The notes: generated from the sequence alone by a model not told the origin. A stretch of DNA of 64,000 bases from an uncultured Planctomycetales bacterium (GCA_964487475.1 CAZAPM010000003.1:62778-126777), one strand, 5' to 3'. Counted from the stretch's first letter, positions 33,296-47,281 are shown. Program-made: numbers and translations.

Positions 33296-34279
33296 TCAGG
33301 CAAGGAATTTCGAAAGGAAATTAAAGAGATAACCGGTAAGGATGATCGCGCAGGTAGTGATACCGAAGAACACGGCAATGAGCGGCAGTTTCATCGCCCG
33401 GCGCAGCATGATCGCCTCGGGCAGGGAAAGCGCGGCCACGGCCATCATAAAGGAAAGCGCCGTGCCCAAAGGGATACCTTTCTGAAAAAGCACCACTGCC
33501 ACCGGAACGATCGCCGCGCAGCTGCCGTACATCGGCACCCCCAGGAGGGTAGCCAGAGGCACGGAGAAGATACCGGCGCGCGCGATCGCATTCTGGATCA
33601 GCTCCTGCGGCACATAATTGTGGATCAATGCTCCCAGCGCGACACCCGCCAGGATCCAGAGCCAGAGCTTTGCGACAATGGAGACCGCCTCATTGATCCC
33701 GAAACGGATGCGGGAAACCATCCCCTCATACCGGATGCAGGCGCAGGAAACAGCCGGATCGGCGGACGCGCTCCCTGCGGAGGGATCCAGCATATCCTTT
33801 TCCAGAAACCGCTCCAGGGAAAGCTTTCCCAGTACCAGGCCGGAGAACACGCCGATAAACATCCCGCTGATGACATACGCCAGCGTGATCTTCCATCCGA
33901 AGAACCCCAGCATCAGCACCACCAGATACTCATTGATCAAAGGAGAGGTGATCAGGAAGGAAAAAGTCACCCCTAAAGGCACGCCGGCTTTCAGGAACCC
34001 GAAGAAGAGCGGGATGGAAGAACAGGAGCAGAACGGGGTCACGGCGCCGAAAATCGCCGCCAGGAAATTCCCCATCCCCCCTCCCTTGGCCAGCCATTGC
34101 CGTATCTTCTCCTGGGGAAGGTACGTGCGCAGGAACCCGACGACGGCGATCATGCCGAACAACATCAGCATGAGCTTGAGGGAATCGTATACGAAGAAAT
34201 TCACCGCCTGCCCGAGATGCGAATCCGCATCCAGGCGCAGCAGGGAGTATACTATCCCGTCCGCGATCAGCTGCAGCAT
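33296..34279 (-). CDS. DUF318/ArsP-like permease
   Basis: 327 aa with two homologous halves. The signature [10 protein letters not shown] motif is present. Confidence 0.8.
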
Positions 34280-34419
34280 TTCTTTTCCTTATCCTTACCC
34301 TCTGCGCCGCCGCAGCAGCCGCAGGATGACCGGGATTTTTCCGCCAACTTCTTATCGAGCTTGTCAAAAAACCTGGCCAGTACGCCCTTCTTTTCCGAAG
34401 TCTCTTTCTTCTGATCCAT
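34267..34419 (-). CDS. Unannotated 50-aa Cys-rich ORF ([50 protein letters not shown]) translationally coupled to the DUF318 permease
   Basis: Found by manual translation. A perfect SD AAGGAGG lies 5 nt upstream of ATG 34419. Its TGA overlaps the permease start region (..AAATGCTGCAGCTGA..). It is below the 60-aa cutoff of the ORF track. Confidence 0.5.
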
Positions 34420-34428
34420 GGATCCTCC

Positions 34429-35352
34429 TTATGTCAGTGCTGCGTGAGCCCGCGCCTTGGAGCGCAGGAAAAAATATCCGATGATACCGATCGTGGCGGC
34501 CGGGGAAGCCCACTCCGGCAGATGCACCCCGAAACTCCTGGCGATCATGAACGATCCCAGCACCAGCACGGAGTACATCGCCCCGTTCTTCAGATACACG
34601 TATTTTTTCACCCGGTCGATGTTGCCGACGGTCAACTGCCGCACCACCAACGCGCCCAGGCCGTTGCCGGCCAGGATCAGCGGCACGGAAAGGGTGAAGG
34701 CGAAGGCGCCCAGCACTCCGTCGATGGAAAAAGTGGTGTCGATTATCTCCAGGTAAAGGATCTTGCTGACGTCGGAGGCCGAAGAGTGCAGCAGCTCCTT
34801 TTCCTTGGCTTCCGCGCTGCTCTTGAACCCCTGGGTGATGAAGAACGCGCTCGAGCCGACCACCGCGCCGAAGGCCATGAGCGGATCGCGCGCCAGCGAC
34901 CACCACACCAGCAGGCAGAGCAGGAGAGAGACCACGGCGTAAAACCAGAACCCGTTGCGGTAAAAGAACGGCTCCAGGGGCAGCCCGAAATGTTTTTCCT
35001 CAAGGAAGAGCCAGTAAAAGAACAGGAACACCAGGAAGACCCCGCCCCCCATGAGCAGCACCGGCGCGGAACGCTCGATGGCCTCGATGGCGGCGGTATT
35101 GCCGGAAAAGGTCGCAGTCAGCGCGCCCCACATCCCCAGGCCCGGCGCCGAAGCCCAGACGATCACCCAGGGCAGCAGGCCGCGGACCACGAACACCGCG
35201 AAAAGGATACCCCAGAGCAGGAACCAGCGGCGCGCTTTCTGGCCCATCCCAGAAAGAACCTCGGCGTTGATGATGGCATTATCGACGCTGCTGATGGACT
35301 CGAAAAGGCACAGCCCTACTACCGTGAACAATGCGGAGAAAATATTCACCAA
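34429..35352 (-). CDS. TerC/DUF475-family integral membrane protein
   Basis: 307 aa, multi-pass. The SVDNAI motif recurs in a TerC-like duplicated architecture. Confidence 0.65.
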   Translation of the reverse strand: MVNIFSALFTVVGLCLFESISSVDNAIINAEVLSGMGQKARRWFLLWGILFAVFVVRGLLPWVIVWASAPGLGMWGALTATFSGNTAAIEAIERSAPVLLMGGGVFLVFLFFYWLFLEEKHFGLPLEPFFYRNGFWFYAVVSLLLCLLVWWSLARDPLMAFGAVVGSSAFFITQGFKSSAEAKEKELLHSSASDVSKILYLEIIDTTFSIDGVLGAFAFTLSVPLILAGNGLGALVVRQLTVGNIDRVKKYVYLKNGAMYSVLVLGSFMIARSFGVHLPEWASPAATIGIIGYFFLRSKARAHAALT

Positions 35353-35405
35353 TGATACCTCATCATGATGGAATGAACATCGACCGCTATCATACCCGCT
35401 CCATA

Positions 35406-36563
35406 TTACCCATCAATGCATCCGCTGTCAACGGAATTGCGCCGCGCCAGGCCGGAGAGGAACCGGGACTTCCACTCCCCCTCCTGCCACTCCCCCTCTG
35501 CGGTGGAATCCCACACGATCCCGCCTCCAATCCCCATCTCTCCGGAGTGCCCCTTAAGCAGCGCGGTACGGATGGGGATATTGAACATCATCTCCCGCTC
35601 CGGGGTCGCGTATCCGATCGCTCCGGTGTAGATACGGCGGGGTTCTCCCTCCAACTCCCGGATGACCTCCATGGCCCTGATCTTGGGCGCGCCGGTCACC
35701 GACCCGGAAGGGAACAGCGCGGAAAATAGGTCCGCCAAAGAAAGCCCGTGCGCCACCCTTGCCTTCACGGTCGAGGTCATCTGGAACAGCGTGCGGTAAC
35801 GCCTGACCTCGAAGAGCTTGGGCGCCCTAACCCGGCTGCCGATCCTGCCCAGGTCGTTACGCAGCAGATCGGCGATCATCAGGTTCTCCGCCCGGTTCTT
35901 GGGGTCGAACTTCAAACGCATCCCCCCGAAGGCATCCTTCAAGAATCCGCCGCTGCGCGGCCAGGTGCCTTTCATCGGCTTGGAAATGATCCGTGCGCCA
36001 CGCTTACGGATGAATAGCTCGGGAGAAAGCGAGAGGATCGAATGGTCTGCGGTCTCCACGAACGCGGGGTACGGCACCGGCTGCTGCCGGAAAAGCTCCC
36101 GGTAAAGCGCCCGGGTATCACCCCGGTAGGTAAAAAGCATCTTAAAACAGTACGTGATCTGATAGACGTCGCCGGCGGCAATGTATTCGCGGATGCGCCG
36201 GATATCCTCCCCGTACCTCTCCCGGGTGATATTCCTCCGCAATCCGCACACCCCTTCCCCGGCCAGGTCCTTATCCCGGAGGACGCGGGAAGAACGGAGG
36301 ATGCTCACCCCGGAGGGGGGTTTTGCGTACACCCCCAGGCACAGCAAAGGGAAATCCTCCGGCTCATACAGACGGGTAAGCGTATCCTCGAAGCCGTAGC
36401 CGGATTCGTAAGAAAGGAATCCCGCGATATAATTGCCTTCGGAAAGCGCGCGGTCCGCATCCGCCAAAGCCTCCCGCATCTGCGCTGGCCGCCGTGCCAC
36501 GATGAGGCGCGTGGGATCCTCAAAACACAGAGGATTGCCGTCGAACTCGGTGCACACCCGCAC
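35406..36563 (-). CDS. Chorismate-binding enzyme, PabB/TrpE family (aminodeoxychorismate or anthranilate synthase component I, short form)
   Basis: 385 aa with a C-terminal chorismate-binding domain (..GAIGY.., ..GGGIVWDS..) and a PabB-like N-region. No amidotransferase partner in the window. Confidence 0.75.
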   Translation of the reverse strand: MRVCTEFDGNPLCFEDPTRLIVARRPAQMREALADADRALSEGNYIAGFLSYESGYGFEDTLTRLYEPEDFPLLCLGVYAKPPSGVSILRSSRVLRDKDLAGEGVCGLRRNITRERYGEDIRRIREYIAAGDVYQITYCFKMLFTYRGDTRALYRELFRQQPVPYPAFVETADHSILSLSPELFIRKRGARIISKPMKGTWPRSGGFLKDAFGGMRLKFDPKNRAENLMIADLLRNDLGRIGSRVRAPKLFEVRRYRTLFQMTSTVKARVAHGLSLADLFSALFPSGSVTGAPKIRAMEVIRELEGEPRRIYTGAIGYATPEREMMFNIPIRTALLKGHSGEMGIGGGIVWDSTAEGEWQEGEWKSRFLSGLARRNSVDSGCIDG

Positions 36564-36566
36564 GGT

Positions 36567-36782
36567 TTATTTTACCCCGCACTTCCTCAAGATCGTCATC
36601 ATCGGGCACCAGTTGGTAAAGGCCGACTGAAAGAGGTTGGCGCCCACGAAGGCGGCGAACCATATCCAGCGGGAATCCACCAGGATCGCCAATGCCACGC
36701 TGATCATAATGAACGCGCCGGCGATCCCTCTGAGCATCCTCTCCAAACTCACCCCCGTCGGGGAACAGCATGACTGTGCCAT
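36567..36782 (-). CDS. DUF2892 (YgaP-like) small membrane protein
   Basis: 71 aa with a GxxRxxxG...QSAFTNWCP signature. Confidence 0.7.
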   Translation of the reverse strand: MAQSCCSPTGVSLERMLRGIAGAFIMISVALAILVDSRWIWFAAFVGANLFQSAFTNWCPMMTILRKCGVK

Positions 36783-36803
36783 GATCCCTCCTTGCGTCGC
36801 TCC

Positions 36804-38093
36804 TTAGAACGAATACCGCACACGCAGAAACGCGTTGCGGTTCTTTTTCATCATCCCGAAATCAGTGATCCCGTCCTCCCCCCAGGGCAGGTTCACCCCG
36901 AAGGTCAACTTCCATTGATCGGTCAGGTCATACGCCAGGGACGCGCGGACGTAGCCGTCCTTATCCGAAGGGGACCAGAAATTGAATATCCCCGCCATCA
37001 CGGTCTGGTTCTTGTACAATTTGGTGATGCGCTGCGTCAGCAGATGCCGGTACTCATCCCAGAAATAATCCCGGGGCAGGAGCGCGGCGGAATAATCCGC
37101 GTAATTGAGTTTCTGTTCGAAGAGATACTGCACGCCGGCCTTCAGGTCGTTGCCAAAATCCTTTTCATACCCTGCCATCCATTTCAGCATCGAGTTCTCG
37201 ACCAGACGGTCTCCTCCGCTGCCGTCCTGGCGGGAGCGGTAGTACCCCGCCTCCGCATTGCCGATTCCTCCGGCGAACGGGCCGCGGATACTGGCGCCAT
37301 AGGCATCCAGACGCTCGTACATGAGCATACGGTCCGCCTCGTCAAGATAACTGCGGGGGGAAGGATCGAACCCCCGGTAATAATACAGTGCTGCTTCATT
37401 GCTGCCGAAGGTGCGGTACAGCCGCAGGGCATACTGCGCGTTATTGCCCTGGTGTGCGGGCCTGATCGCGGTACGCTGCGACTGCCGTCCGGCGATCCCT
37501 CCCTGGTAACTGTCGAAAAAAGAAAGCCTGTCCCCCTCCGGCATGGTGTTGGAGGTGAAATGCGGGATCACGGCAAAGTCGATGTTCACCGCCTCGGGAT
37601 ACAGGGAGATCCGCACGGCATCGGAGGGCTTTTTCAGGTACTCGTCGTCCCGGCCGATATAAAAGGACACGTAATCCTTCGGGAAAAGATCGTTGATGAA
37701 AAGATAGTCCCCGGTCCCCCAGGTCAACACCTGGCGGCCGACCTTAAAATCGATCCTCTGCGCAGGGCTGAAAGCGAAGTTCCCTTCCCGGATATCGAAG
37801 GAGCCCGTGGTATCGAAATACTCGTCGAGCAGAAAGTCCCCCTTGAAGGCAAGCACGCCGTTCCAGCGGGAGAGCGTATTCTCGCCGGGGATGCCGTAGC
37901 GGGTCTTAAGCTGCAGCCGCTGCTCGAGCAGGTTGTACCCGTCGTGCTTGGTCAAACCGTCCCGGCCGATACGGCTTCCGTAGGCGTGTTCCACGAAACC
38001 GTGCACCTCGGGCAACTCCGCGGCTGCGGCCAGGGGTGTCCCCATCAGGAGCGTCCCTAAAAGGGACGCTCGCAAAGGGGACACCCATCGCAT
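36804..38093 (-). CDS. Outer-membrane beta-barrel protein (C-terminal aromatic, ..RVRYSF)
   Basis: Signal peptide from MRWVSPLRASLLGTLLMGTPLAAAAE, alternating beta-strand pattern and a terminal Phe. The start is uncertain (M1, M8 or M18). Confidence 0.6.
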   Translation of the reverse strand: MRWVSPLRASLLGTLLMGTPLAAAAELPEVHGFVEHAYGSRIGRDGLTKHDGYNLLEQRLQLKTRYGIPGENTLSRWNGVLAFKGDFLLDEYFDTTGSFDIREGNFAFSPAQRIDFKVGRQVLTWGTGDYLFINDLFPKDYVSFYIGRDDEYLKKPSDAVRISLYPEAVNIDFAVIPHFTSNTMPEGDRLSFFDSYQGGIAGRQSQRTAIRPAHQGNNAQYALRLYRTFGSNEAALYYYRGFDPSPRSYLDEADRMLMYERLDAYGASIRGPFAGGIGNAEAGYYRSRQDGSGGDRLVENSMLKWMAGYEKDFGNDLKAGVQYLFEQKLNYADYSAALLPRDYFWDEYRHLLTQRITKLYKNQTVMAGIFNFWSPSDKDGYVRASLAYDLTDQWKLTFGVNLPWGEDGITDFGMMKKNRNAFLRVRYSF

Positions 38094-38128
38094 CGGATGC
38101 CTCGCGTTCCCGTGACCGTGCATATCCC

Positions 38129-38920
38129 TCACTCCTTGAGCCACTGCTGCGGAGGATTGCGCAAGAAACGTTCGGAGAATATCTCGTCCTTCAGGCCGAC
38201 ATCATACTGCATATCGGAAAACTCCGTCACGGTGCTGGCCCCGGAGTTCATATCGGACGCCTTCATCCTGGTCACCGTAGGATAACCCTGCACCTCCTTG
38301 ACCTCCAGCGCCTCGATGATACGGTAGGGTTTTCCTTCCTTATCGAAATACTCCGCCTTCACCGGCACGAAATTCTGCTTGTCTATCGATACGGTATAAT
38401 ACGAGAACTCGACCAAATTGGCATCCTTAGGGATGTTCTTGACCTTGTAATACTTCTCATCCGCACCCAGGCTCTCATGCGTATCCATATCGATGCCGCG
38501 GCCGGAGATATCCTCGTAAAGGAAGGTGGTCCCGGCAAAGCTGGAGCGCTTGTCCGATGCGGCGATGCGGCGCACCAGGTCCATGGCGGGAAGATAGAGC
38601 CACCGGTCGTCATCCTTACCCGCATGCTTCCAGACGATGTAGCTCATGCCTTTGACATCGGTCGGCTTGTGGAAATACACGTAATACTTCTGGTCCCCGC
38701 CCTCCTGCAGATTGAGCTTCAATATGGTCAGCTGACGCACCCGCGTCCTGCCCTGCGCGTCGGTAACGGTCATGGTCGCTTTGGCCCGCCCGTCCTTGCC
38801 CTGGTAATAGGAACGGTTGTTGGCTTTTGTCACGATCTCATTGACCGAAAGTTCCTGCGCCCAGGCACTGACCGCCCAAAACGCACACGCCACACCTGCC
38901 AGATATGCGAACCTTCTCAT
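38129..38920 (-). CDS. LolA-like outer-membrane lipoprotein-sorting / lipid-carrier protein
   Basis: Signal peptide MRRFAYLAGVACAFWAVSAWAQE and a LolA-like beta-barrel body. Its ATG overlaps the RND stop as ATGA (38917-38920). Confidence 0.6.
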   Translation of the reverse strand: MRRFAYLAGVACAFWAVSAWAQELSVNEIVTKANNRSYYQGKDGRAKATMTVTDAQGRTRVRQLTILKLNLQEGGDQKYYVYFHKPTDVKGMSYIVWKHAGKDDDRWLYLPAMDLVRRIAASDKRSSFAGTTFLYEDISGRGIDMDTHESLGADEKYYKVKNIPKDANLVEFSYYTVSIDKQNFVPVKAEYFDKEGKPYRIIEALEVKEVQGYPTVTRMKASDMNSGASTVTEFSDMQYDVGLKDEIFSERFLRNPPQQWLKE

Positions 38921-41448
38921 GCTCCCTCCTTGCACGTCTTTCTCCGCGATAAGATCGCGCACGCCGCCGCCAGCACCGCGATGACCGCGATACCGATGAC
39001 CGTCGTCGCCCCCACCTTTGCCAGCTCGTACCCTAACAGGATATAGGCGACCGTCGCCGCCACCAGCACCGCTACCAGCACGCACCTGCCGCAGGCGCAC
39101 ACGGTCCTGGTCCTGGATTCGGAGAACGCCATCCAGGGGAACCCGGTGATGAGCGCCGGCAGTATCATCAGGGTGGCGATACTGGCCACCAGCATGATCA
39201 TGAACATGAAGAAGCCCACCGTATTATACGGCACCAGGGGCGAGGCGAACAGCGGCAGGAACCCGATCGATATCACCAGCGCGTTCTTGAACAGGGCCCG
39301 GGCCGGGGACTGGAACATCAGCTCCGCGGTCTTGGGCCAGTTCTTGTGCTCCGCATACAGCTGGCGGGAGCGCTCGATGAAATGTATCGCGAAATCGATC
39401 GCCAGCCCCAGGGTCAGCGCCGAGAGCACCGCCACCGGCATATCATACTCCTTGCCGGTAAAGCCCAGGGAACCGTAGATCACCAGAATGGTCACGGTAA
39501 GGGGGATCATGGAGATCAGGCCCGTCACCGGGGATCTGAACAGCACCACCATCATCCACAGCACGATGAAGAAACTGCCCAAGAAATTGACCAGCATTCC
39601 CCAGACCATCTTATCCTGCCAGACCATGTTGATATACGTCAAGCCGGCCCAATGGTGCTGCGCTTCGAAGGGAGGGTTATGGGTACGCAAGAACTCCTCG
39701 GCCTGGGCCACCACCGCTGCCATATCCTTGTTATCCCCGGAGGTCAGCTGCAGCCAGACATTGACCTTGGAGTAATCCGGATTGACGAAATGCCAGAGGT
39801 CATCCGGCTTATGGGAGTTCTCGAAGGAAAGCAGCGCCTGGGCCACGGCCTGCCGCGTGGGAGGGATAACGTTGTGCTTTTTATCCCCTCCCAGAAGCTC
39901 ATAATACACCTTCTTGCTGACATCCGCCAAAGAGGTGGATTTCCCCACTTTGCCCTTTTCCAGAAGATACTTCTGGAGACCCTCGACATAGGAGAGCATC
40001 TTCGGTTCCTGGAAGACCATACCCTCTTTATCCTTCGCCTCCAGCACCAGGTACGCGCTGTACGTCCCCCCGAAATGCTGGTTCAAAACCACATCCGCCA
40101 CCCGGATCGGATGCTTCTTGTTGAACCACTTGGTAGGATTATCGTTTATCTCGATATGGGTGATACCGTACACCGCCAATGCGATGATCACCACACTGCC
40201 TGCCAGCACCGCCTTCCAGCGCCGGACCGTGAACGCCCCCCATCTTGAAAGAAGCGTACTCAACAATCCCGTGTGATGCTCCTCGGTCGCGCCGAAATTC
40301 CCCATCTTCCTCTCGTCCAGCAGCGCGATGTACGCGGGGATAAGCACCACGGTCAGCACCCAGGCCAGCGCCACCCCGAACGCCACGGCGATACCGAACA
40401 CCTGCACCGGCGGTATCGGGGTAAAGGAAAGGGAGAAAAACCCGGCCACGGTGGTCAAAGAAGTGAAAAGATTGGGCCGGTAGAGATCCTTCAGCACAAA
40501 AGTAATGGTCTTGTTCTTATCCTTGAACTGCGGATACTTCTCGAAGAATTCGCTCAAGATATGGATGGAATCCAGCACCGATATGGGCAAAAGGAATATC
40601 GGGATCATAGAGCTCATGATATGGATGGGAAAGCCCAGCCCCACCAGCGCGCCCATGGTGATGATCACGCAGATCATGGCCATGACGATCGGCATCACCA
40701 CCAGCACCACATGCTTGAAGAACCACCACATCAGCAGGAATATCACCAGCACCGCCAGGGGCGCGGAGATCCCCATCTGCCAGAACATCTCGACGCCGAA
40801 GGCGTCTTCCGCCAGAGGCAGGCCGGTCAGATGGTACTGCTCATCCCCCGGCATCCCGGCCAGCACCTTCTGGATGTCCTTTGAGATCCGGTAACTGAGC
40901 TTCTTCTCCTTGATCGGGATGTAGATGCATAACGCCTTTCCGTCGCGGGAGATCAGTGTATCGTAAAAGAGCGGGTTATCCAGGGCGCGGGCCTTGATCC
41001 GCGCCGCATCCTGCGCGGTATAGGGAGGGTTCCCCATCAGCCACTTGAAACTGATCGTTCCCGCCCCTCCCTGCTCTATATCATCCTTGTTGGCCAGGCT
41101 CATCATCTCGTAGGCGATGACCCCGTCGATCTTTTTGGCCGCGTTCGTGAGCGCATGTACCTTCTCCAGGGTCGCCGGGTTGAAGACCCCCTGCGGGTCC
41201 TTCTCGTTGACCACGCCCAGCACGATATAATCGTACAGTGCGAACTCCCTCTTCACCTCATGATTGAAGACGCGGACGAATTCGCTCTCGGGGAGCATGT
41301 TCTCCGGGTCGGTATCCACCTTGACCTTGAAAAATGCGGCCAGGGAAAGGAGCACCGCCAGACCGGTGACCGCGAACACCAGTTTCGGCCTGCGCAGTGA
41401 AAACGCAACGAGTTTCTCCAGCATACCGACCTCCGTCTTATGATCCAT
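38917..41448 (-). CDS. MMPL/RND-superfamily exporter (12 TM, two large periplasmic loops)
   Basis: 843 aa with duplicated 6-TM + periplasmic domain architecture and an SSD/MMPL-type TM pattern. It has a Cys-rich C-terminal extension (CACGRC..). Confidence 0.85.
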   Translation of the reverse strand: MDHKTEVGMLEKLVAFSLRRPKLVFAVTGLAVLLSLAAFFKVKVDTDPENMLPESEFVRVFNHEVKREFALYDYIVLGVVNEKDPQGVFNPATLEKVHALTNAAKKIDGVIAYEMMSLANKDDIEQGGAGTISFKWLMGNPPYTAQDAARIKARALDNPLFYDTLISRDGKALCIYIPIKEKKLSYRISKDIQKVLAGMPGDEQYHLTGLPLAEDAFGVEMFWQMGISAPLAVLVIFLLMWWFFKHVVLVVMPIVMAMICVIITMGALVGLGFPIHIMSSMIPIFLLPISVLDSIHILSEFFEKYPQFKDKNKTITFVLKDLYRPNLFTSLTTVAGFFSLSFTPIPPVQVFGIAVAFGVALAWVLTVVLIPAYIALLDERKMGNFGATEEHHTGLLSTLLSRWGAFTVRRWKAVLAGSVVIIALAVYGITHIEINDNPTKWFNKKHPIRVADVVLNQHFGGTYSAYLVLEAKDKEGMVFQEPKMLSYVEGLQKYLLEKGKVGKSTSLADVSKKVYYELLGGDKKHNVIPPTRQAVAQALLSFENSHKPDDLWHFVNPDYSKVNVWLQLTSGDNKDMAAVVAQAEEFLRTHNPPFEAQHHWAGLTYINMVWQDKMVWGMLVNFLGSFFIVLWMMVVLFRSPVTGLISMIPLTVTILVIYGSLGFTGKEYDMPVAVLSALTLGLAIDFAIHFIERSRQLYAEHKNWPKTAELMFQSPARALFKNALVISIGFLPLFASPLVPYNTVGFFMFMIMLVASIATLMILPALITGFPWMAFSESRTRTVCACGRCVLVAVLVAATVAYILLGYELAKVGATTVIGIAVIAVLAAACAILSRRKTCKEGA

Positions 41449-41794
41449 GATGTTTGGAAAGTATCTCTGCGGCTTTCTCGACGCACCCCAGGCAGGAAAG
41501 CTTGCGTCCCTGTCTGATATCCTTGCAGGTCAGGGCGCCGGCCGCCTCGCGGAACTCCTGCTGGCACTCCTGCACTTTATGCGGGGCTTTTTTCGAAAGC
41601 AAGTGGTGCGCGGCATGGTACGCGCCGCATCTGCCTTCCGGCGCCTTGCCTCCCCCGTACCCCGCGAACAGGTCCACCTCGGCAGCAGGCGCGTCGAATA
41701 CGTCATGATACGCCTTGATCACCGCCTGCCCGCAGTTAAGTTTCGCATGCCCGTCCTGTCCCAGAAAATGTTTCCTTGCCTTCTGTCTACGCAT
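41438..41794 (-). CDS. C_GCAxxG_C_C-family putative redox-active protein
   Basis: 118 aa with a C..GQA...RCGAY...C..C pattern matching the C_GCAxxG_C_C signature. Confidence 0.75.
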   Translation of the reverse strand: MRRQKARKHFLGQDGHAKLNCGQAVIKAYHDVFDAPAAEVDLFAGYGGGKAPEGRCGAYHAAHHLLSKKAPHKVQECQQEFREAAGALTCKDIRQGRKLSCLGCVEKAAEILSKHHGS

Positions 41795-42098
41795 CGCTCC
41801 CCTTCTTTCCGGTATTGCCGGTCAGCTTGAACGTGCCGCCGTCGATCTTGAGCATCTTTCCGCAGAGGATCGCCTCCGCGACCTTGCGCCGCGCGGACTC
41901 GACGATGTTCCCGAAGGTCTGCCGGGAAACCTTCATCTTCGCCGCGGCATCGGCCTGGTACATCCCCTGCCGGTCCGCCAGACAAAGCGCCTCGCACTCA
42001 TCGATCGTCAGCACGATCCGCTCCAGGCGCGACTCCGGGATATCCAGCGGCTTGAAATACCGCACCCTGGGCATCCTGCGGACACAACGGCATTTCAT
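41787..42098 (-). CDS. DUF134/UPF0251-family putative DNA-binding regulator
   Basis: A ..MPRVRYFKPLDIP.. N-terminal motif and an HTH-like C-terminus. The start is taken at MKCRC because the mapped promoter's -10 lies inside the longer ORF. Confidence 0.65.
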   Translation of the reverse strand: MKCRCVRRMPRVRYFKPLDIPESRLERIVLTIDECEALCLADRQGMYQADAAAKMKVSRQTFGNIVESARRKVAEAILCGKMLKIDGGTFKLTGNTGKKGSDA

Positions 42099-42140
42099 CG
42101 GCCTGCCGCGGAGCGCTTTTTTAATTTTTAGCATATGCCA

Positions 42141-42169
42141 ATAATATCCGTAAAGAAGGAAATTGTCAA
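42141..42169 (-). promoter_or_regulatory. Near-consensus sigma-70 promoter TTGACA -17 nt- TATTAT driving the DUF134-led operon
   Basis: The minus-strand sequence is TTGACAatttccttctttacggaTATTAT. The -35 overlaps the DUF1667 stop. Confidence 0.55.
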
Positions 42170-42537
42170 GTAATTAATTTCCCCGCCCGGCGGGTAGCTA
42201 CCAGCTTCACCCCCAGACCAAGAAAATCACCGTCGAGCACGGTGCCCGCCTCCACCGGACGGTCCAGACGGATCATTTTGACCTCCTGCATCCCCTCCCT
42301 TATCCTCGCCTTAGGGATCGGGGCGTCCGTGCGCACCGGCACCATCGGCACTTCCAGCCCCTGCGCGCGCACCGCACTGGTCAAAACCCGCATGGGATGC
42401 TCCACTTCGGATACCGCATACGCCTCGCCTTTCGGGCACTGGTTTCCCTCCACCCTGACCACCCGGCAGTTCTCGATATCCACCGTCAGGCGGCATCCGC
42501 GGGGACACTCGATACAGGTCATCTGCGTGCGCGTCAT
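42166..42537 (-). CDS. DUF1667-domain protein (CxxCPxGC), small subunit of the anaerobic G3P-dehydrogenase-like set
   Basis: The MTCIECPRGC ... NQCPKGE motifs are present. ATGA overlap with the upstream oxidoreductase. Confidence 0.75.
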   Translation of the reverse strand: MTRTQMTCIECPRGCRLTVDIENCRVVRVEGNQCPKGEAYAVSEVEHPMRVLTSAVRAQGLEVPMVPVRTDAPIPKARIREGMQEVKMIRLDRPVEAGTVLDGDFLGLGVKLVATRRAGKLIT

Positions 42538-43511
42538 GGCGCTCTCCCCAGGAACGCCGCGGCCTGCCTGCCCGCCTCGAGGCTGTCCCGCGTCACCCAA
42601 TCCACCAGGTCATACACCTTATACGCGTTGCCGCAGGCAAACACCCCCGGAAGGGAGGTGGCATTCAACCCCTCTCCCCGGGGAGTATTGGTCTTAGGGT
42701 CGATCTCCGCGCCCGCCATCTCCAGGAGCTCGTTCTCCGGTATCAGCCCTACGGAGACCAGCAGCGTATCGCAGGTCAGCATGAACCCGCTGTCCGCGAC
42801 CTCATTCCATTGCTCATCCACCCGCACCACTTCCACCCCTTCCACCCTGTCCCGGCCTTTTATGCAGCGCACCTTATGGCTCAGATATATAGGTATATCG
42901 TAATCCTCCAGGCACTGCGCGACATTACGGGCAAGCCCGCTGGGTTTCGGCTGGATCTCGATCACCCCGTGCACTTTGGCCCCTTCCAGGGAAAAACGGC
43001 GCGCCATGATCAGGCCGATATCCCCGCTTCCCACGATCACCACTTCCCTACCGGGAAGCAATCCTTCGATATTGATCAGTTTCTGCGCCAGCCCTGCCGA
43101 GAACACCCCTGCGGGCCGGGTGCCCGGGATGTGCACCATCTCGCGGGTGCGCTCGCGGCACCCTGTAGCGATGATCAGCGCTTTAGCCCGGACCTCGCAA
43201 AGCTCTCCGGGCTTCAGGTACGTCAGCACCCTCTCCCGGGAAAGCCTGACCACGAAGGAACGCAGGCTTACCTCGACACCCGGCAGCGCCGCGGTCCTCT
43301 CGATGAAACGCTGCGCGTACTCCGGCCCGGTCAGCACTTCCTGAAAATGATTAAGCCCGAACCCGGTATGGATGCACTGGTTGAGGATCCCCCCCAGGAA
43401 CTGGTCCCGCTCGAGGATAAGGATATCTTTGACCCCGGCCTCGTGCGCAGCCAGCGCCGCGGCCATACCGGCAGGCCCTCCCCCCACGATCACCAGCTCC
43501 CTCTCAACCAT
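42534..43511 (-). CDS. NAD(P)/FAD-dependent oxidoreductase (pyridine nucleotide-disulfide family)
   Basis: 325 aa with two Rossmann GxGxxG motifs (VIVGGGPAG, VVIVGSGDIG). Confidence 0.8.
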   Translation of the reverse strand: MVERELVIVGGGPAGMAAALAAHEAGVKDILILERDQFLGGILNQCIHTGFGLNHFQEVLTGPEYAQRFIERTAALPGVEVSLRSFVVRLSRERVLTYLKPGELCEVRAKALIIATGCRERTREMVHIPGTRPAGVFSAGLAQKLINIEGLLPGREVVIVGSGDIGLIMARRFSLEGAKVHGVIEIQPKPSGLARNVAQCLEDYDIPIYLSHKVRCIKGRDRVEGVEVVRVDEQWNEVADSGFMLTCDTLLVSVGLIPENELLEMAGAEIDPKTNTPRGEGLNATSLPGVFACGNAYKVYDLVDWVTRDSLEAGRQAAAFLGRAP

Positions 43512-44961
43512 TGCCCCGCTCCTCCTTGACCAGCTCGGTGCCTTTCCCCCGCTTGGTCACCTCCGTCATGCGCAGGAGCCTCTCCTCAGCCAGTATCTTC
43601 ATGATGCGGGTGGTGCAGAAACTGCCGTGGCACCTGCCGGCCTGAGCCCGGGTGCGGAATTTCACTCCGTCCATGGTCCTGGCGCCGCGCCGCACCGCTT
43701 CGCGCACCTCCTTGGCCGAGACCATCTCGCAGCGGCAGACGATATCCCCGTACGCCGGGTCCTTCTTCACCAGCCGTGCGGTTTTGGACAGGGGTAAGGA
43801 AAAAAGATGGGTGGTCCGGCTCCGGCGGCGACGGAAGAAAAGCTTGCGCCGCAGCTGCAATCCGTGTTTTCCGAGGATATCCGTCACCAGCAGCGCGATC
43901 GCCGGGGAAGCGGTCAATCCCGGGGACTGGATACCGGCGACCGTGACCATGCCCGGGACTTTCTCCTCATGCCGGATGATGAAATCCTCGCCGGCGACCG
44001 GCCGCAACCCCGCGAAATACGCGATGATATCCCGGTCATTGACCGAGGGGACCAGCCTGCGGGCGCTTTCCAGCACGTGCCGCAGCCCTTCCTCGGTGGT
44101 CGTCCGGTCGTCCTTATCCCCGACCTCGCAGGCGGTGGGCCCGATCATAGGATTACCATCGGAGGTCTTGATGATCAGTACCCCCTTGGAGTGCTTCGCG
44201 GGCACGGGAAAGATCAGATGGTTGGAAAGATGCTCCCGCTTCTTATCCAGCAGGTACTCCTCGCCTTTGCGCGGGCGGATCGTGAAATCCCGTATCCCCG
44301 CCATGGCCGCGACCGTATCCGCATGAAGCCCGGCCGCGTTGACCACGAAACGGGCAAGGAAAATCCCCCGGCCGGTCACCAGTTCGAAACGATGCCCGGA
44401 AGGCAGCGCGCGCTCATCCGTACGCTCGATGCGCTCGACCTGCGCGCCGGTATAGATCAACACCCCGTTCCTCTGCGCGTTCTCGCTTAAGTCATACGCC
44501 ATGCGGTAAGGGCTGATGATCCCGGCGCTCGGAGCGAAAAGGGCGGCTACCGCCGCCGGATTAAGGTTCGGCTCATGCTCCCGCAGCCACTTCTTATCTA
44601 CGATGCGCAGGCCCGGCACCCCCAACTCCTCCCCCTGCCGCTTAAGGAGCCCCAGGGTCGCCAACTCCTCCTGATCGAACGCCACGACCAGCTCTCCGGT
44701 CTGCTTGAAATCGATCCCCAGTTCCCGGGCCAACCTGCGCACCAGCATATTGCCCTGCACGCACAAGCGGCCCTTCAGCGAACCCGGGGGGTTCTGAATG
44801 CCGGGGTGGATGATCCCGCTGTTGGATTTGGAGACCCCGAACGCCAGCTCCTCCTCCTTCTCGAGGAGCGCGACGGTAAGACGGTACCGGGAAAGCTCGC
44901 GCGCGATGGCCGTGCCTACCACTCCCCCGCCGATGATCGCCACATCGATGCAATTGCTCAT
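43504..44961 (-). CDS. FAD-dependent glycerol-3-phosphate dehydrogenase-like (GlpA-type) with C-terminal BFD-like [2Fe-2S] domain
   Basis: DAO fold (VAIIGGGVVG) plus a C-terminal CRCE...C...C BFD motif. ATGA overlap with glpK. Confidence 0.8.
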   Translation of the reverse strand: MSNCIDVAIIGGGVVGTAIARELSRYRLTVALLEKEEELAFGVSKSNSGIIHPGIQNPPGSLKGRLCVQGNMLVRRLARELGIDFKQTGELVVAFDQEELATLGLLKRQGEELGVPGLRIVDKKWLREHEPNLNPAAVAALFAPSAGIISPYRMAYDLSENAQRNGVLIYTGAQVERIERTDERALPSGHRFELVTGRGIFLARFVVNAAGLHADTVAAMAGIRDFTIRPRKGEEYLLDKKREHLSNHLIFPVPAKHSKGVLIIKTSDGNPMIGPTACEVGDKDDRTTTEEGLRHVLESARRLVPSVNDRDIIAYFAGLRPVAGEDFIIRHEEKVPGMVTVAGIQSPGLTASPAIALLVTDILGKHGLQLRRKLFFRRRRSRTTHLFSLPLSKTARLVKKDPAYGDIVCRCEMVSAKEVREAVRRGARTMDGVKFRTRAQAGRCHGSFCTTRIMKILAEERLLRMTEVTKRGKGTELVKEERGNG

Positions 44962-46439
44962 CGTAACCGTGCCCTCGCCACTGCCCCGCCCCATCCCGCA
45001 TACAGCCTCTGCGCCTCAGGCTTCCTGATGCCGGGACGGAATTCCTTATCCCTGCACCAGTTCCTGCGGATATCCTCCGCGCTCTTCCAGAAACCGACGC
45101 CCAGACCGGCCAGGTACGCCGCGCCCAGCGAAGTGATCTCGATCACCTTAGGCCGCACTACGGGGATACCCAGCATATCCGCCTGGAAACGGCAGAGGAA
45201 ATCATTGGCCGCGGCTCCTCCGTCCACCTTAAGCGACCTGATCTTCAGTCCCGAATCCTTCTGCATCGCCTCCAGGACGTCCCGGGTCTGATAACAGATC
45301 GATTCCAGCGCCGCCCGCACCAGATGTTCGCGTGTGGTCCCCCGGGTAATCCCGCAGATCACTCCCCGCGCCTGCTGGTCCCAGTAAGGAGCTCCCAGTC
45401 CCACGAACGCCGGGACCAGGTATACCCCGCCGGTATCCCTTACCGACTCGGCCATGCGCTGCGAATCCTGCGCCGCTGCCAGGAGCTTAAGCCCGTCGCG
45501 CAGCCACTGGATCGCCGCGCCGGCGATGAACACCGAACCTTCCAGCGCATAACACGGCGCACCCTGCGCATCGCACGCCAGGGTGGTGATAAGCCCGAAG
45601 CGCGAATCCGTCTTTCGGGCTCCCGTATTCATCAGGATAAAGCTTCCCGTGCCGTACGTGTTCTTGACCTCGCCGGGTGAAAAACACGCCTGGCCGAAAA
45701 GCGCCGCCTGCTGATCCCCCGCGATCCCCGTGATCGGGATACCCGCGGGCAGCCTCCCCAGCCTGACGGTCATCCCGAAGGAACCGCTCGAAGGCAGCGC
45801 CCAGGGCAGCAAGGACGGAGGGATCCCGAACTCCTTCAGCAGACGGCTGTCCCAGTCCCGCCGCGCGATATCGAAGAGCATGGTACGGGAAGCGTTGGTA
45901 AGATCCGTGGCATGGACCGCTCCCCCGGTCAGGTTCCACAGCACCCAGGAATCCGCGGTGCCGAACGCCAGCCTGCCCCCGGCCGCAGCCGCCGCAACGC
46001 GCGGCTCATGCTCCAGCATCCAGGATAATTTAGTCGCGGAGAAATACGCGTCGATAGGCAGACCGGTGCACGCGCGCACATACCGCACCAGCTCCCGGCG
46101 GCGTTTGAGCGCCTCGCACCGCGCCGCGGTGCGCCGGCACTGCCAGACGATCGCCCGGCACACCGGCCTTCCGGTGCTGCGCTCCCACAGGAATGAGGTC
46201 TCCCGCTGGTTGGTGATACCGACCGCGGCAATGGAGGATCCCGGAACGCGCGCCAGGACCCGCTGGATGGAAAGATATACGCTGCGCCAGATCTCCCGCG
46301 GATCATGCTCTACCCATCCGGGCTTAGGGAAGTACTGCCGGAACTCCTGATAGGCAGCCGCTACCTTGCGGCCGCGGCGGTCATAGACGATCGCCCGGCT
46401 TCCCGTCGTTCCCTGATCGATCGCAAGAATATGCTTCAT
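44958..46439 (-). CDS. glpK: Glycerol kinase
   Basis: FGGY family with the ILAIDQGTTGSRA N-terminus. The start at MKHILAID is supported by an ATGA overlap. Confidence 0.9.
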   Translation of the reverse strand: MKHILAIDQGTTGSRAIVYDRRGRKVAAAYQEFRQYFPKPGWVEHDPREIWRSVYLSIQRVLARVPGSSIAAVGITNQRETSFLWERSTGRPVCRAIVWQCRRTAARCEALKRRRELVRYVRACTGLPIDAYFSATKLSWMLEHEPRVAAAAAGGRLAFGTADSWVLWNLTGGAVHATDLTNASRTMLFDIARRDWDSRLLKEFGIPPSLLPWALPSSGSFGMTVRLGRLPAGIPITGIAGDQQAALFGQACFSPGEVKNTYGTGSFILMNTGARKTDSRFGLITTLACDAQGAPCYALEGSVFIAGAAIQWLRDGLKLLAAAQDSQRMAESVRDTGGVYLVPAFVGLGAPYWDQQARGVICGITRGTTREHLVRAALESICYQTRDVLEAMQKDSGLKIRSLKVDGGAAANDFLCRFQADMLGIPVVRPKVIEITSLGAAYLAGLGVGFWKSAEDIRRNWCRDKEFRPGIRKPEAQRLYAGWGGAVARARLR

Positions 46440-47281
46440 GCCGGCGCCTCCTTCACTCCGTGCTGGAGCATCCACTGGTACATATCCGCGAACACCTTCT
46501 CCCTTTCTTCGTCGATGGAAAGGGCGTGGCGCATCCCGGGATACTCCTTGAGCGCCTTATCTTCGAACGCGATGCCCCGGAACACCCGGCGGCTGGCCTC
46601 GTTATCCACCATCTGGTCCATTCCCGCCAGCTGGAAGAACACGGGGATACGCAGGAACTGCGCGTCCAGCCACGCCCGGCGCTGTATCCTCAAAGTATTC
46701 CACAAGAACGCCGCGGTGACCGTGCGTACCTCGCGCGGGTCATGGTCGAGCAGGGACTGGTACGCTTTGTCCCGCGTGCAAAGGGCGGAGGAAAACGGCA
46801 CTCTGAAGCGCATCCTCCTGCGCAGCGCCCAGGCCAGAGAAAACGCCGCGCGCTGCCCCACGGTAAAGGAAAGCGTGCTTTTGAACGCCGGAGAAAGGCA
46901 GATCACGCCTTGGAACGCCGGACCCTCGACGGAAGCGAAATGGAAGGCCAGCAGCGCGCCGAAACTCTCCCCGATCAGGAAAAGCGGCGCTCCGGGATGC
47001 GCCTCTTCGGCCAGTTCGATCAGCGCGCTTATCTCGCGGTAATACCGGCGAAAGGACTCCACATGCCCTTTATCCTTCTTATGCTCTCCGAAACCGGGAA
47101 GCTCCAGAGCATAAGAAACGACCCCCTTTTCCTTAAGATAGCTTGCGCACGCCTCCCACCTCTGGCTGTGCCCCCCCAGACCGTGGACCAGACAGGTTAT
47201 CCCCCGGCATGCTGACCCTTGAGGAAGCAGCCATGCCCGGTACAACATGCCTTGACGCTCCAGGAGGGAACTCGGCATCAT
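46436..47281 (-). CDS. Alpha/beta hydrolase (lysophospholipase/monoacylglycerol-lipase-like)
   Basis: HGLGGH oxyanion motif and GESFG nucleophile elbow. The start at MMPSS is supported by an ATGA overlap with the rSAM gene stop. Confidence 0.75.
   Translation of the reverse strand: MMPSSLLERQGMLYRAWLLPQGSACRGITCLVHGLGGHSQRWEACASYLKEKGVVSYALELPGFGEHKKDKGHVESFRRYYREISALIELAEEAHPGAPLFLIGESFGALLAFHFASVEGPAFQGVICLSPAFKSTLSFTVGQRAAFSLAWALRRRMRFRVPFSSALCTRDKAYQSLLDHDPREVRTVTAAFLWNTLRIQRRAWLDAQFLRIPVFFQLAGMDQMVDNEASRRVFRGIAFEDKALKEYPGMRHALSIDEEREKVFADMYQWMLQHGVKEAPA

Follow-up and report, generated by a model that had tools for sequence, protein, structure and literature searches.

An MMPL pump, LolA-like carrier and outer-membrane barrel module with a DUF2892 partner, preceded by a putative cysteine-rich DUF134 regulator in an uncultured Planctomycetales bacterium

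The operon described here lies in a stretch of 64,000 nucleotides (nt) from an uncultured Planctomycetales bacterium (GCA_964487475.1 CAZAPM010000003.1:62778-126777), and "the window" refers below to this whole 64-kb stretch. Six consecutive genes on the minus strand, from 42134 down to 36567, encode in order of transcription a DUF134 regulator, a C_GCAxxG_C_C protein (hereafter CGC), an MMPL/RND pump, a LolA-like periplasmic carrier, an outer-membrane beta-barrel, and a DUF2892 protein (Table 1). The open reading frames (ORFs) exist at the positions given in an initial annotation of this DNA, which had been made from the sequence alone, and the families that it had proposed, namely DUF134, C_GCAxxG_C_C, MMPL, LolA_like, and YgaP-like_TM (DUF2892), are upheld by searches with the Pfam hidden Markov models. 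The bit scores are 77.8 (cutoff 27) for DUF134 with PF02001, covering profile positions 4-96 of 98, 44.6 (cutoff 27) for CGC with PF09719, 188.8 (cutoff 30) for the carrier with PF17131, and 50.2 (cutoff 25.3) for the DUF2892 protein with PF11127. The TIGR01909 model gives CGC 32.4, which is below its cutoff of 47.4.

Table 1. Features of the export operon and of the genes downstream of it (positions counted from the first letter of the window; aa, amino acids; HTH, helix-turn-helix; TM, transmembrane).
Feature	Position	Strand	Remarks
Promoter TTGACA-17-TATTAT	42141..42169	-	11/12 consensus positions, sigma-70-type
DUF134 (UPF0251) HTH regulator, 115 aa	41787..42134	-	PF02001 at 1e-21
C_GCAxxG_C_C protein, 118 aa	41438..41794	-	PF09719 at 1.8e-11; predicted cytoplasmic, all-helical
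HAE3-like MMPL/RND inner-membrane pump, 843 aa	38917..41448	-	PF03176 at 2.6e-29
Pump C-terminal tail, ~residues 776 to 843	38920..39123	-	CxCxxC, two extra TM helices, Cx8C
LolA-like (TP_0789-like) periplasmic carrier, 263 aa	38129..38920	-	PF17131 at 9.5e-56; signal peptide
Outer-membrane 18-strand beta-barrel	36804..38123	-	distant DUF1302 relative; ORF open to 38144
DUF2892 / YgaP-like 2-TM protein, 71 aa	36567..36782	-	PF11127 at 2.8e-13
pabB-like chorismate-binding enzyme gene	35406..36563	-	PF00425 at 1.7e-77
DUF475/TerC-like membrane protein	34429-35352	-	second downstream operon
50-aa Cys-rich peptide ending ...SSCGCCGG...KKCCS	34267-34419	-	without family match
ArsP_1 permease	33296-34279	-	second downstream operon

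The layout that had been claimed, an MMPL/RND pump followed by a LolA-like carrier and an outer-membrane barrel (together the triad), is confirmed, and it recurs widely. Relatives of the pump were gathered by a pump-profile scan with one genome per species, which yielded 80 loci; together with three loci fetched earlier they make up a set of 83, in which all ORFs were searched with iterative profiles of the window proteins (related loci are cited as L001 and so on). The scanned loci come from Omnitrophota, Planctomycetota, Desulfobacterota, Nitrospinota, Alpha-, Gamma-, and Zetaproteobacteria including cultured Marinobacter, Bdellovibrionota, Verrucomicrobiota, Ignavibacteria, Zixibacteria, Krumholzibacteriota, Gemmatimonadota, Calditrichota, and others, and the closest pump relatives, with identities of up to 83%, are labelled Candidatus Omnitrophota. 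A LolA-like gene is present in 81 of the 83 loci and a barrel gene in 75, both directly after the pump, and all three members of the triad co-occur in about 75 of the 83 loci, in more than 12 phyla. The DUF2892 gene adjoins the triad in 56 of the 70 loci that have a complete triad and enough flanking sequence; it is found after the barrel (39), before the pump (11), or between pump and carrier (4). Because this association is kept while the position changes, the DUF2892 gene appears to be under selection for co-expression with the triad. The triad with DUF2892 is thus a widespread module rather than an oddity of one genome, and DUF134 and CGC are lineage-specific additions to it in one Omnitrophota-like clade.

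The pump shows two MMPL stretches and partial Patched/SSD and ACR_tran matches in Pfam. Its best RND subfamily in NCBIfam is HAE3 (TIGR00921, 2e-61, 208 bits, residues 19-767), and it is best described as HAE3-like, short of a certified HAE3 member. The residues D293/H296 and D685/H689, which lie in the two membrane halves as expected for the RND architecture, are invariant in 27 homologues, and for this reason the pump is probably driven by the proton gradient. A CACGRC motif had been noticed near the C-terminus of the pump; it is real, and lies in a conserved tail of 65-85 aa that carries two extra TM helices and five cysteines (consensus C.C..C...C...s..k.C) and is found in 32 of the 83 related pumps. 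All five tail cysteines are predicted at the cytoplasmic face by the standard RND topology. The idea that the tail is a fused DUF2892 was rejected (hhalign probability, 0.2%). In two loci from unrelated metagenome-assembled genomes, L051:7710-10841 and L073:7908-11108, the pump and the LolA-like carrier form one polypeptide, in which the signal peptide of the carrier is kept as an extra TM helix, and these fusions argue that pump and carrier work together.

The carrier has an N-terminal signal-peptide-like sequence, MRRFAYLAGVACAFWAVSAWA/QE, read off the translation, and its gene starts with an ATG that overlaps the stop codon of the pump gene. Its matches in the PDB are 9tp6 at 1e-32, and also 4z48 and 3bk5; DUF1329 is seen on the carrier orthologues only as faint precomputed matches. 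The barrel gene most likely starts at the ATG at 38123, since an AAGGAG Shine-Dalgarno sequence lies upstream and a start there agrees with the 100% identical database protein P0121 of 439 aa. The match of the barrel to DUF1302 is weak (E = 0.004-0.005, 16-17 bits, cutoff 23.2), and 28 of 46 orthologues match this family at E<=0.01, the best of them at 3e-7. The fold of the barrel has 18 strands and is OprD/AlgE/MOMP-like, unlike TolC. None of the six proteins has a Pfam match to a membrane-fusion protein (HlyD/MFP) or to OEP, and the operon therefore does not correspond to a canonical AcrAB-TolC system. The DUF2892 gene is preceded by a consensus AAGGAGG Shine-Dalgarno sequence, and Cys59 of its product lies in the motif FTxWCP, a family signature in which this residue is 98% conserved. 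No rhodanese domain was found in this protein, which matches the TM-domain family only, so that it is not a YgaP proper.

The gene upstream of the module is usually a regulator. In a flank census, the ORFs around the 83 modules were clustered and, for each locus, the two genes closest upstream were scanned against Pfam. ArsR/HTH_5 proteins are the commonest neighbour (25-35 loci), and an extracytoplasmic-function (ECF) sigma factor with an 85-aa soluble zf-HC2 anti-sigma factor is found upstream in 9-13 loci of Ignavibacteria, Zixibacteria, and Krumholzibacteriota; ECF/anti-sigma pairs were noted in L048, L049, L051, L053, L058, L059, L061, L062, L067, L069, L076, L077, and L080. The anti-sigma factor carries an H-x3-C-x2-C motif, which we take to be the ZAS motif known from RsrA, a sensor of disulfide stress. 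An assignment of the ArsR neighbours to the persulfide sensors of the SqrR/BigR/YgaV type was rejected, as they have no conserved cysteine; the tested representative (L034) has Rv0081 as its best PDB match, and its cysteines lie off the SqrR/BigR positions. DUF134 is confined to the closest Omnitrophota-like clade, and precedes the pump in L002, L004, L005, L006, L084, L085, L086, and L087. In this pump-linked subclade, five cysteines (C15, C17, C47, C51, and C91) are conserved at 81-91%, and they are mostly absent from other DUF134 proteins (three compared).

The nature of these neighbours bears on the question of whether the module could export lipids as a housekeeping function in building the outer membrane, as HpnN does for hopanoids or ApeL/M/N for aryl-polyene lipids. 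Such a role agrees with the presence of an MMPL pump beside a LolA-like carrier, a pairing shared with the aryl-polyene cluster, and with a weak similarity to HpnN. However, the likeness to the lipid exporter HpnN that had been suggested for the pump fails on model scores (84.6 bits against a cutoff of 751.85 for TIGR03480, and 31.7 against 1100 for NF052374), so that membership in this family was rejected, and the HpnN structure 5khn matches the pump at E = 7e-4 only. No hopanoid genes occur near the operon in the window or are enriched around the 83 loci, where lipid-biosynthesis genes are not linked to the module and no other biosynthetic partner is enriched; the downstream census found no enriched family of any kind. 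Moreover, a stress-type regulator is nearly always adjacent and the distribution is patchy. A lipid-biogenesis role is consequently quite improbable, and since the module combines a dedicated regulator with a lack of biosynthetic neighbours, inducible detoxification or efflux is favoured.

The near-consensus sigma-70 promoter that had been claimed for the operon is real: it is the single site with at most one mismatch in the window, where 0.06 would be expected by chance. Upstream of orthologous DUF134 genes, 20 distinct sequences share the string TTGACA-N17-TATTAT-T[G/A]GCAT-ATG without variation while their flanks are unconserved, and an invariant string amid unrelated flanks is most readily read as the phylogenetic footprint of a real promoter. 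Because 6 nt separate the end of the -10 hexamer from the ATG of DUF134, a leaderless mRNA is predicted, with its start at or beside the A of the ATG, and the transcript start at 42134 implied by the initial annotation fits this spacing. Promoter-like sites inside the operon are at chance level (9/12 matches). The overlaps between genes are also as had been described, namely 8 nt at 41787/41794, 11 nt at 41438/41448, and ATGA at 38917-38920. The second of these overlaps presupposes M1 as the start of the pump; the true start may be M9 (ATG at 41424), because this residue is at least 90% conserved among homologues, and a 13-nt gap would then separate the CGC and pump genes. At the other end, the unit had been placed to end at 36567. 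Its six-gene extent stands, but the end probably does not, since the pabB-like gene starts only 3 nt past the DUF2892 stop codon with no terminator in between; the transcription unit thus probably runs past 36567 to 35406, with the pabB-like gene as a co-transcribed passenger. This gene is absent next to the module in related loci and does not belong to the conserved module. Upstream on the same strand, there is a glycerol operon (42166-46475, -) with glpK, a glpA-like DAO/BFD protein (glycerol-3-phosphate dehydrogenase-like), a pyridine-nucleotide-disulfide (FAD) oxidoreductase, and DUF1667. The TGA stop codon of the DUF1667 gene falls within the -35 hexamer, and read-through from the glycerol operon into the export operon is possible.

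In the CGC protein, the five cysteines C21, C56, C90, C101, and C104 do not vary among 34 homologues. Neither the protein nor its profile found a match when searched by sequence against the PDB; in a fold search, it resembles the iron-centre domain of the Desulfovibrio desulfuricans split-Soret cytochrome c (PDB 1h21), in the part that the C_GCAxxG_C_C model also matches, and CGC is on this ground probably an iron or iron-sulfur protein. With 16% identity and no match at the sequence level, the likeness is one of fold, and in contrast to the cytochrome the window protein is stand-alone, cytoplasmic, and without haem motifs. CGC is encoded between DUF134 and the pump in six of the eight DUF134 loci and is absent in L084 and L085. 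In L001, L007, and L119, its gene lies downstream of the barrel with an ArsR-type regulator upstream (a LolA-like gene and a barrel gene are also found upstream of the CGC gene in L119), and L152 has CGC without DUF134. Since CGC is placed without DUF134 or after the barrel together with ArsR, and DUF134 also occurs without CGC, CGC appears to follow the pumps rather than DUF134. In a metagenome scan from the CGC side, 18 of the 21 informative loci, those with a homologue at least 57% identical, have the order DUF134-CGC-MMPL, and about 10 loci, partly the same as those of the genome set, show the complete six-gene order. The adjacency of CGC and MMPL is thus not confined to one genome, and the family assignments are also supported, so that neither of the two outcomes that the initial annotation had named as refuting its proposal was observed. 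The more distant members of the CGC subfamily are mostly located elsewhere, and are found beside the triad again in L119, L129, and L152. In L114, L117, L119, L126, and L135, cassettes of the form ArsR-CGC-TolC-like OEP-ACR_tran were seen, which contain a second and unrelated type of RND pump.

Although the initial annotation spoke of "fusing" the exporter to the CGC, DUF134, and DUF2892 proteins, there are no fused proteins in the window. Natural fusions are found in other genomes: CGC is joined to a YgaP-like TM domain alone in L134:4629-5252, to rhodanese and a YgaP-like TM domain in L123:5001-5939, and to a GloB/Blh-type metallo-beta-lactamase (MBL) domain, rhodanese, and a YgaP-like TM domain in L140:4968-6611 and L145:5001-6611, and in L118:5001-6598 CGC has a separate gene, which comes directly before one for MBL-rhodanese-YgaP_TM. 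On account of these fusions, CGC and DUF2892 appear to be functional partners at the cytoplasmic membrane face, with a tie to sulfur-transfer domains. Another conceivable cargo of the module is zero-valent sulfur, or else polysulfides or organic persulfides, all of them lipophilic and thiol-reactive; CGC, DUF2892, and the pump tail would then form a cysteine relay at the cytoplasmic face that senses the cargo or feeds it to the pump. In favour of this, the sulfurtransferase YgaP has DUF2892 as its membrane domain, the fused domains are those just listed, and rhodanese, CoA-disulfide-reductase-rhodanese, thioredoxin, and TauE genes stand beside some modules; in Azospira, the transcripts most induced by H2S include that of a DUF2892 gene, and a gene for sulfide:quinone oxidoreductase (SQR) lies inside an RND operon. 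On the other hand, neither SQR nor persulfide dioxygenase is encoded near the operon in the window or in most of the loci, the ArsR regulators lack cysteines of the SqrR/BigR type, and the argument is one of guilt by association through domains that serve other thiol chemistry as well. Sulfur as the cargo is therefore regarded as unlikely.

Some further genes recur near a minority of the modules. A thioredoxin gene lies near the module in 11 loci, and CoA-disulfide-reductase-rhodanese, rubrerythrin, flavodiiron protein, desulfoferrodoxin, and TauE genes also recur. In L084, a close relative, genes for TauE-like, desulfoferrodoxin, and AhpC/TSA proteins follow DUF2892 (L084:10684-12195), and in the Omnitrophota loci L011-L016, L031, and L037 rubrerythrin, flavodiiron, rubredoxin, and thioredoxin-reductase-like genes are located just upstream of the module. 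Conserved clusters of antisense ORFs opposite DUF2892 and CGC were rejected as by-products of the conserved coding strand.

Downstream of the operon in the window, there is a second small minus-strand operon (33296-35431) with a promoter-like site of its own (TTGACA-17-TAATAT, 35431-35403, 10/12). In L087, an ArsP_1 permease gene comes after a second, Cys-poor DUF134 gene and is followed by genes for a methyltransferase, Thioredoxin_3, and a DsbD-like protein. The efflux of a thiophilic metal, metalloid, or organometal, sensed by the ArsR-type or cysteine-rich regulators, would account for the prevalence of ArsR-family neighbours, for the ArsP_1 permease operon just downstream in the window, for the P-type ATPase genes downstream in L006, L036, and L038, and for CGC homologues of the same subfamily that also precede ACR_tran/OEP RND systems. 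Such a function is nevertheless very improbable. The combination of a LolA-like hydrophobic carrier with an HAE3 pump is unlike the architecture of metal RND systems known so far, multidrug models give the associated ACR_tran pump a higher score than the CusA/CzcA model does, and the periplasmic parts showed no metal-binding motifs.

Cysteines are a common theme of the proteins considered above: there are five in DUF134, five in CGC, five in the pump tail, one in DUF2892, and the motif of the anti-sigma factor. The general picture that we favour, with a probability of roughly 55%, is a stress-induced exporter of a hydrophobic and probably thiol-reactive compound, the expression of which would respond to redox or thiol signals. 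It would be an inducible, envelope-spanning export machine without a TolC channel or a membrane-fusion protein. The proton-driven HAE3-like MMPL pump would take the hydrophobic substrate out of the inner membrane and pass it to the soluble periplasmic LolA-like carrier, which would deliver it to the 18-strand DUF1302-like outer-membrane barrel. DUF2892, with its cysteine at the cytoplasmic membrane face, is most likely an accessory subunit of the pump, comparable to AcrZ for AcrB or MmpS for MmpL. In this lineage, the operon would be read as a leaderless mRNA from the strong sigma-70 promoter, with DUF134 autoregulating the operon from that promoter, and the cysteine and iron components would sense a thiol-reactive or redox signal, to which expression and possibly activity would respond. 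The cargo would then be a lipophilic stressor rather than a housekeeping lipid. The data at hand establish the gene families, the synteny and promoter that are conserved, the folds, the fusions, and the conservation of the cysteines, and from them we infer the direction of transport, the cargo class, the sensing chemistry, and the physical contacts between the proteins.

Several points weigh against this export model or limit its reach. The system is known here from sequence, synteny, and folds, and RND precedent is the ground for the assumed direction of transport. None of the solved RND structures in the PDB search is close to the pump, and its score of 208 bits falls short of the HAE3 cutoff of 351.9 bits. 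On the regulatory side, the ArsR neighbours show no conserved cysteine column, so that the signal may differ between lineages; DUF134 is a putative operon regulator by its position and its HTH domain, and we know of no characterised member of this family. The reading of CGC as an iron protein comes from one structural match, and thiol-redox neighbours (thioredoxin, glutaredoxin, rhodanese, and AhpC) are found in a minority of the loci. The term "redox-gated export" used in the initial annotation is accordingly best divided: regulation based on cysteines and the link between CGC and the YgaP TM domain hold, but the gating of transport remains inference. A more elaborate scheme would have an iron or iron-sulfur and thiol relay at the cytoplasmic face of the pump, in which CGC docks on DUF2892, as the natural fusions of the two would suggest, and, with the pump tail, gates transport or delivers zero-valent sulfur or a lipophilic thiol-reactive cargo; we consider it doubtful, and if true, the RND machine would be coupled to redox or sulfur chemistry in a way so far undescribed.

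The statement that this is not a described system agrees with the literature, in which no paper was found that describes the six-gene set. Neither were descriptions found of the near-constant YgaP-like partner, the cysteine-rich pump tail, the repeated recruitment of regulators, or the link between CGC, DUF2892, and RND pumps, and the literature on DUF2892 with ArsR and on TP0789 yielded nothing useful. The architecture of an HAE3-like pump with a LolA-superfamily carrier and a DUF1302-like barrel is known and barely studied; such HAE3/MMPL-LolA-barrel cassettes are common in diderm bacteria, and AmeABCD is the only one for which an experimental study was found. What is defined here is a distinct and widespread four-gene version with a YgaP-like partner, which appears to have been placed repeatedly under cytoplasmic regulators (ArsR-type, ECF sigma with a ZAS-type anti-sigma factor, and cysteine-rich DUF134). 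In addition, CGC and DUF2892, two families of unknown function, are tied to each other by fusions and to RND pumps by synteny, which gives both a testable context, and culturable carriers of the module such as Marinobacter, for instance Marinobacter manganoxydans MnI7-9 (L036) with the order ArsR-DUF2892-MMPL-LolA-OMP, could reveal the cargo. Should the cargo indeed be reactive sulfur or another lipophile that reacts with thiols, the module would close a gap in the removal of such compounds by diderm bacteria.

Among the known systems, AmeABCD of Castellaniella defragrans appears to be the closest described analogue, and the triad may be a distant relative of it or a parallel to it. AmeABCD consists of the HAE3 RND protein AmeD, the DUF1329 protein AmeB, the DUF1302 protein AmeA, and the Ycf48-like AmeC; it confers monoterpene tolerance, and its proposed role is the export of apolar compounds. 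As in the window, an HAE3-type pump, a LolA-superfamily carrier, and a DUF1302-related barrel are encoded in one cassette with no TolC or membrane-fusion protein, a likeness at the level of protein families. The gene order differs, however, and the window carrier belongs to PF17131 whereas AmeB belongs to DUF1329; the window barrel has about 430 aa compared to 605 aa and matches DUF1302 marginally, and the near-constant DUF2892, the cysteine-rich pump tail, DUF134, and CGC are extras of the window system. This parallel prompts a reading in which the module is a pump of the AmeABCD type that provides tolerance to solvents or hydrocarbons and expels or handles terpenes, alkanes, or other apolar compounds of this sort, with the cysteine-rich proteins as regulatory decoration that has no bearing on the cargo chemistry. 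The same three structural classes together with monoterpene tolerance favour it, as do the DUF1302-related barrel, the faint DUF1329 matches of the carrier orthologues, and the MMPL-LolA fusion TOL_3187 of Thalassolituus, which is induced 42-fold on C28 alkane. This reading is possible and is held only tentatively, because no equivalent of AmeC (Ycf48/BNR-like) is found in the operon or among the enriched neighbours of related loci, no hydrocarbon catabolic genes are enriched near the module, the regulators are of the ArsR, ZAS, and DUF134 types instead of the TetR or AraC types usual for solvent pumps, and the near-constant DUF2892 with its invariant cysteine is left unexplained.

The exporter of a thiol-reactive compound favoured here also shares components with E. 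coli YgaP (rhodanese and 2-TM domain) and its ArsR-type regulator YgaV, in that DUF2892 matches the YgaP-like TM family, ArsR proteins are the commonest neighbours of the module, and CGC-rhodanese-YgaP_TM fusions exist in other genomes. It differs from them in that the window DUF2892 has no rhodanese and the ArsR proteins of the module do not have the SqrR/BigR cysteine pattern. To our knowledge, YgaP does not work with an RND pump. HpnN, like the window pump, is an MMPL/RND protein of the same broad family for a hydrophobic cargo, but it works without a dedicated carrier or barrel, according to the AmeABCD paper. In the aryl-polyene clusters (ApeL/ApeM/ApeN) and in TOL_3187, an RND/MMPL pump is paired with a LolA-like chaperone, as in the window; the Ape system differs in its location inside a biosynthetic cluster and in its LolB-like receptor in place of a barrel. 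The fused form of TOL_3187, the function of which is inferred from proteomics only, parallels by its architecture the pump-carrier fusions of the two unrelated genomes described above.

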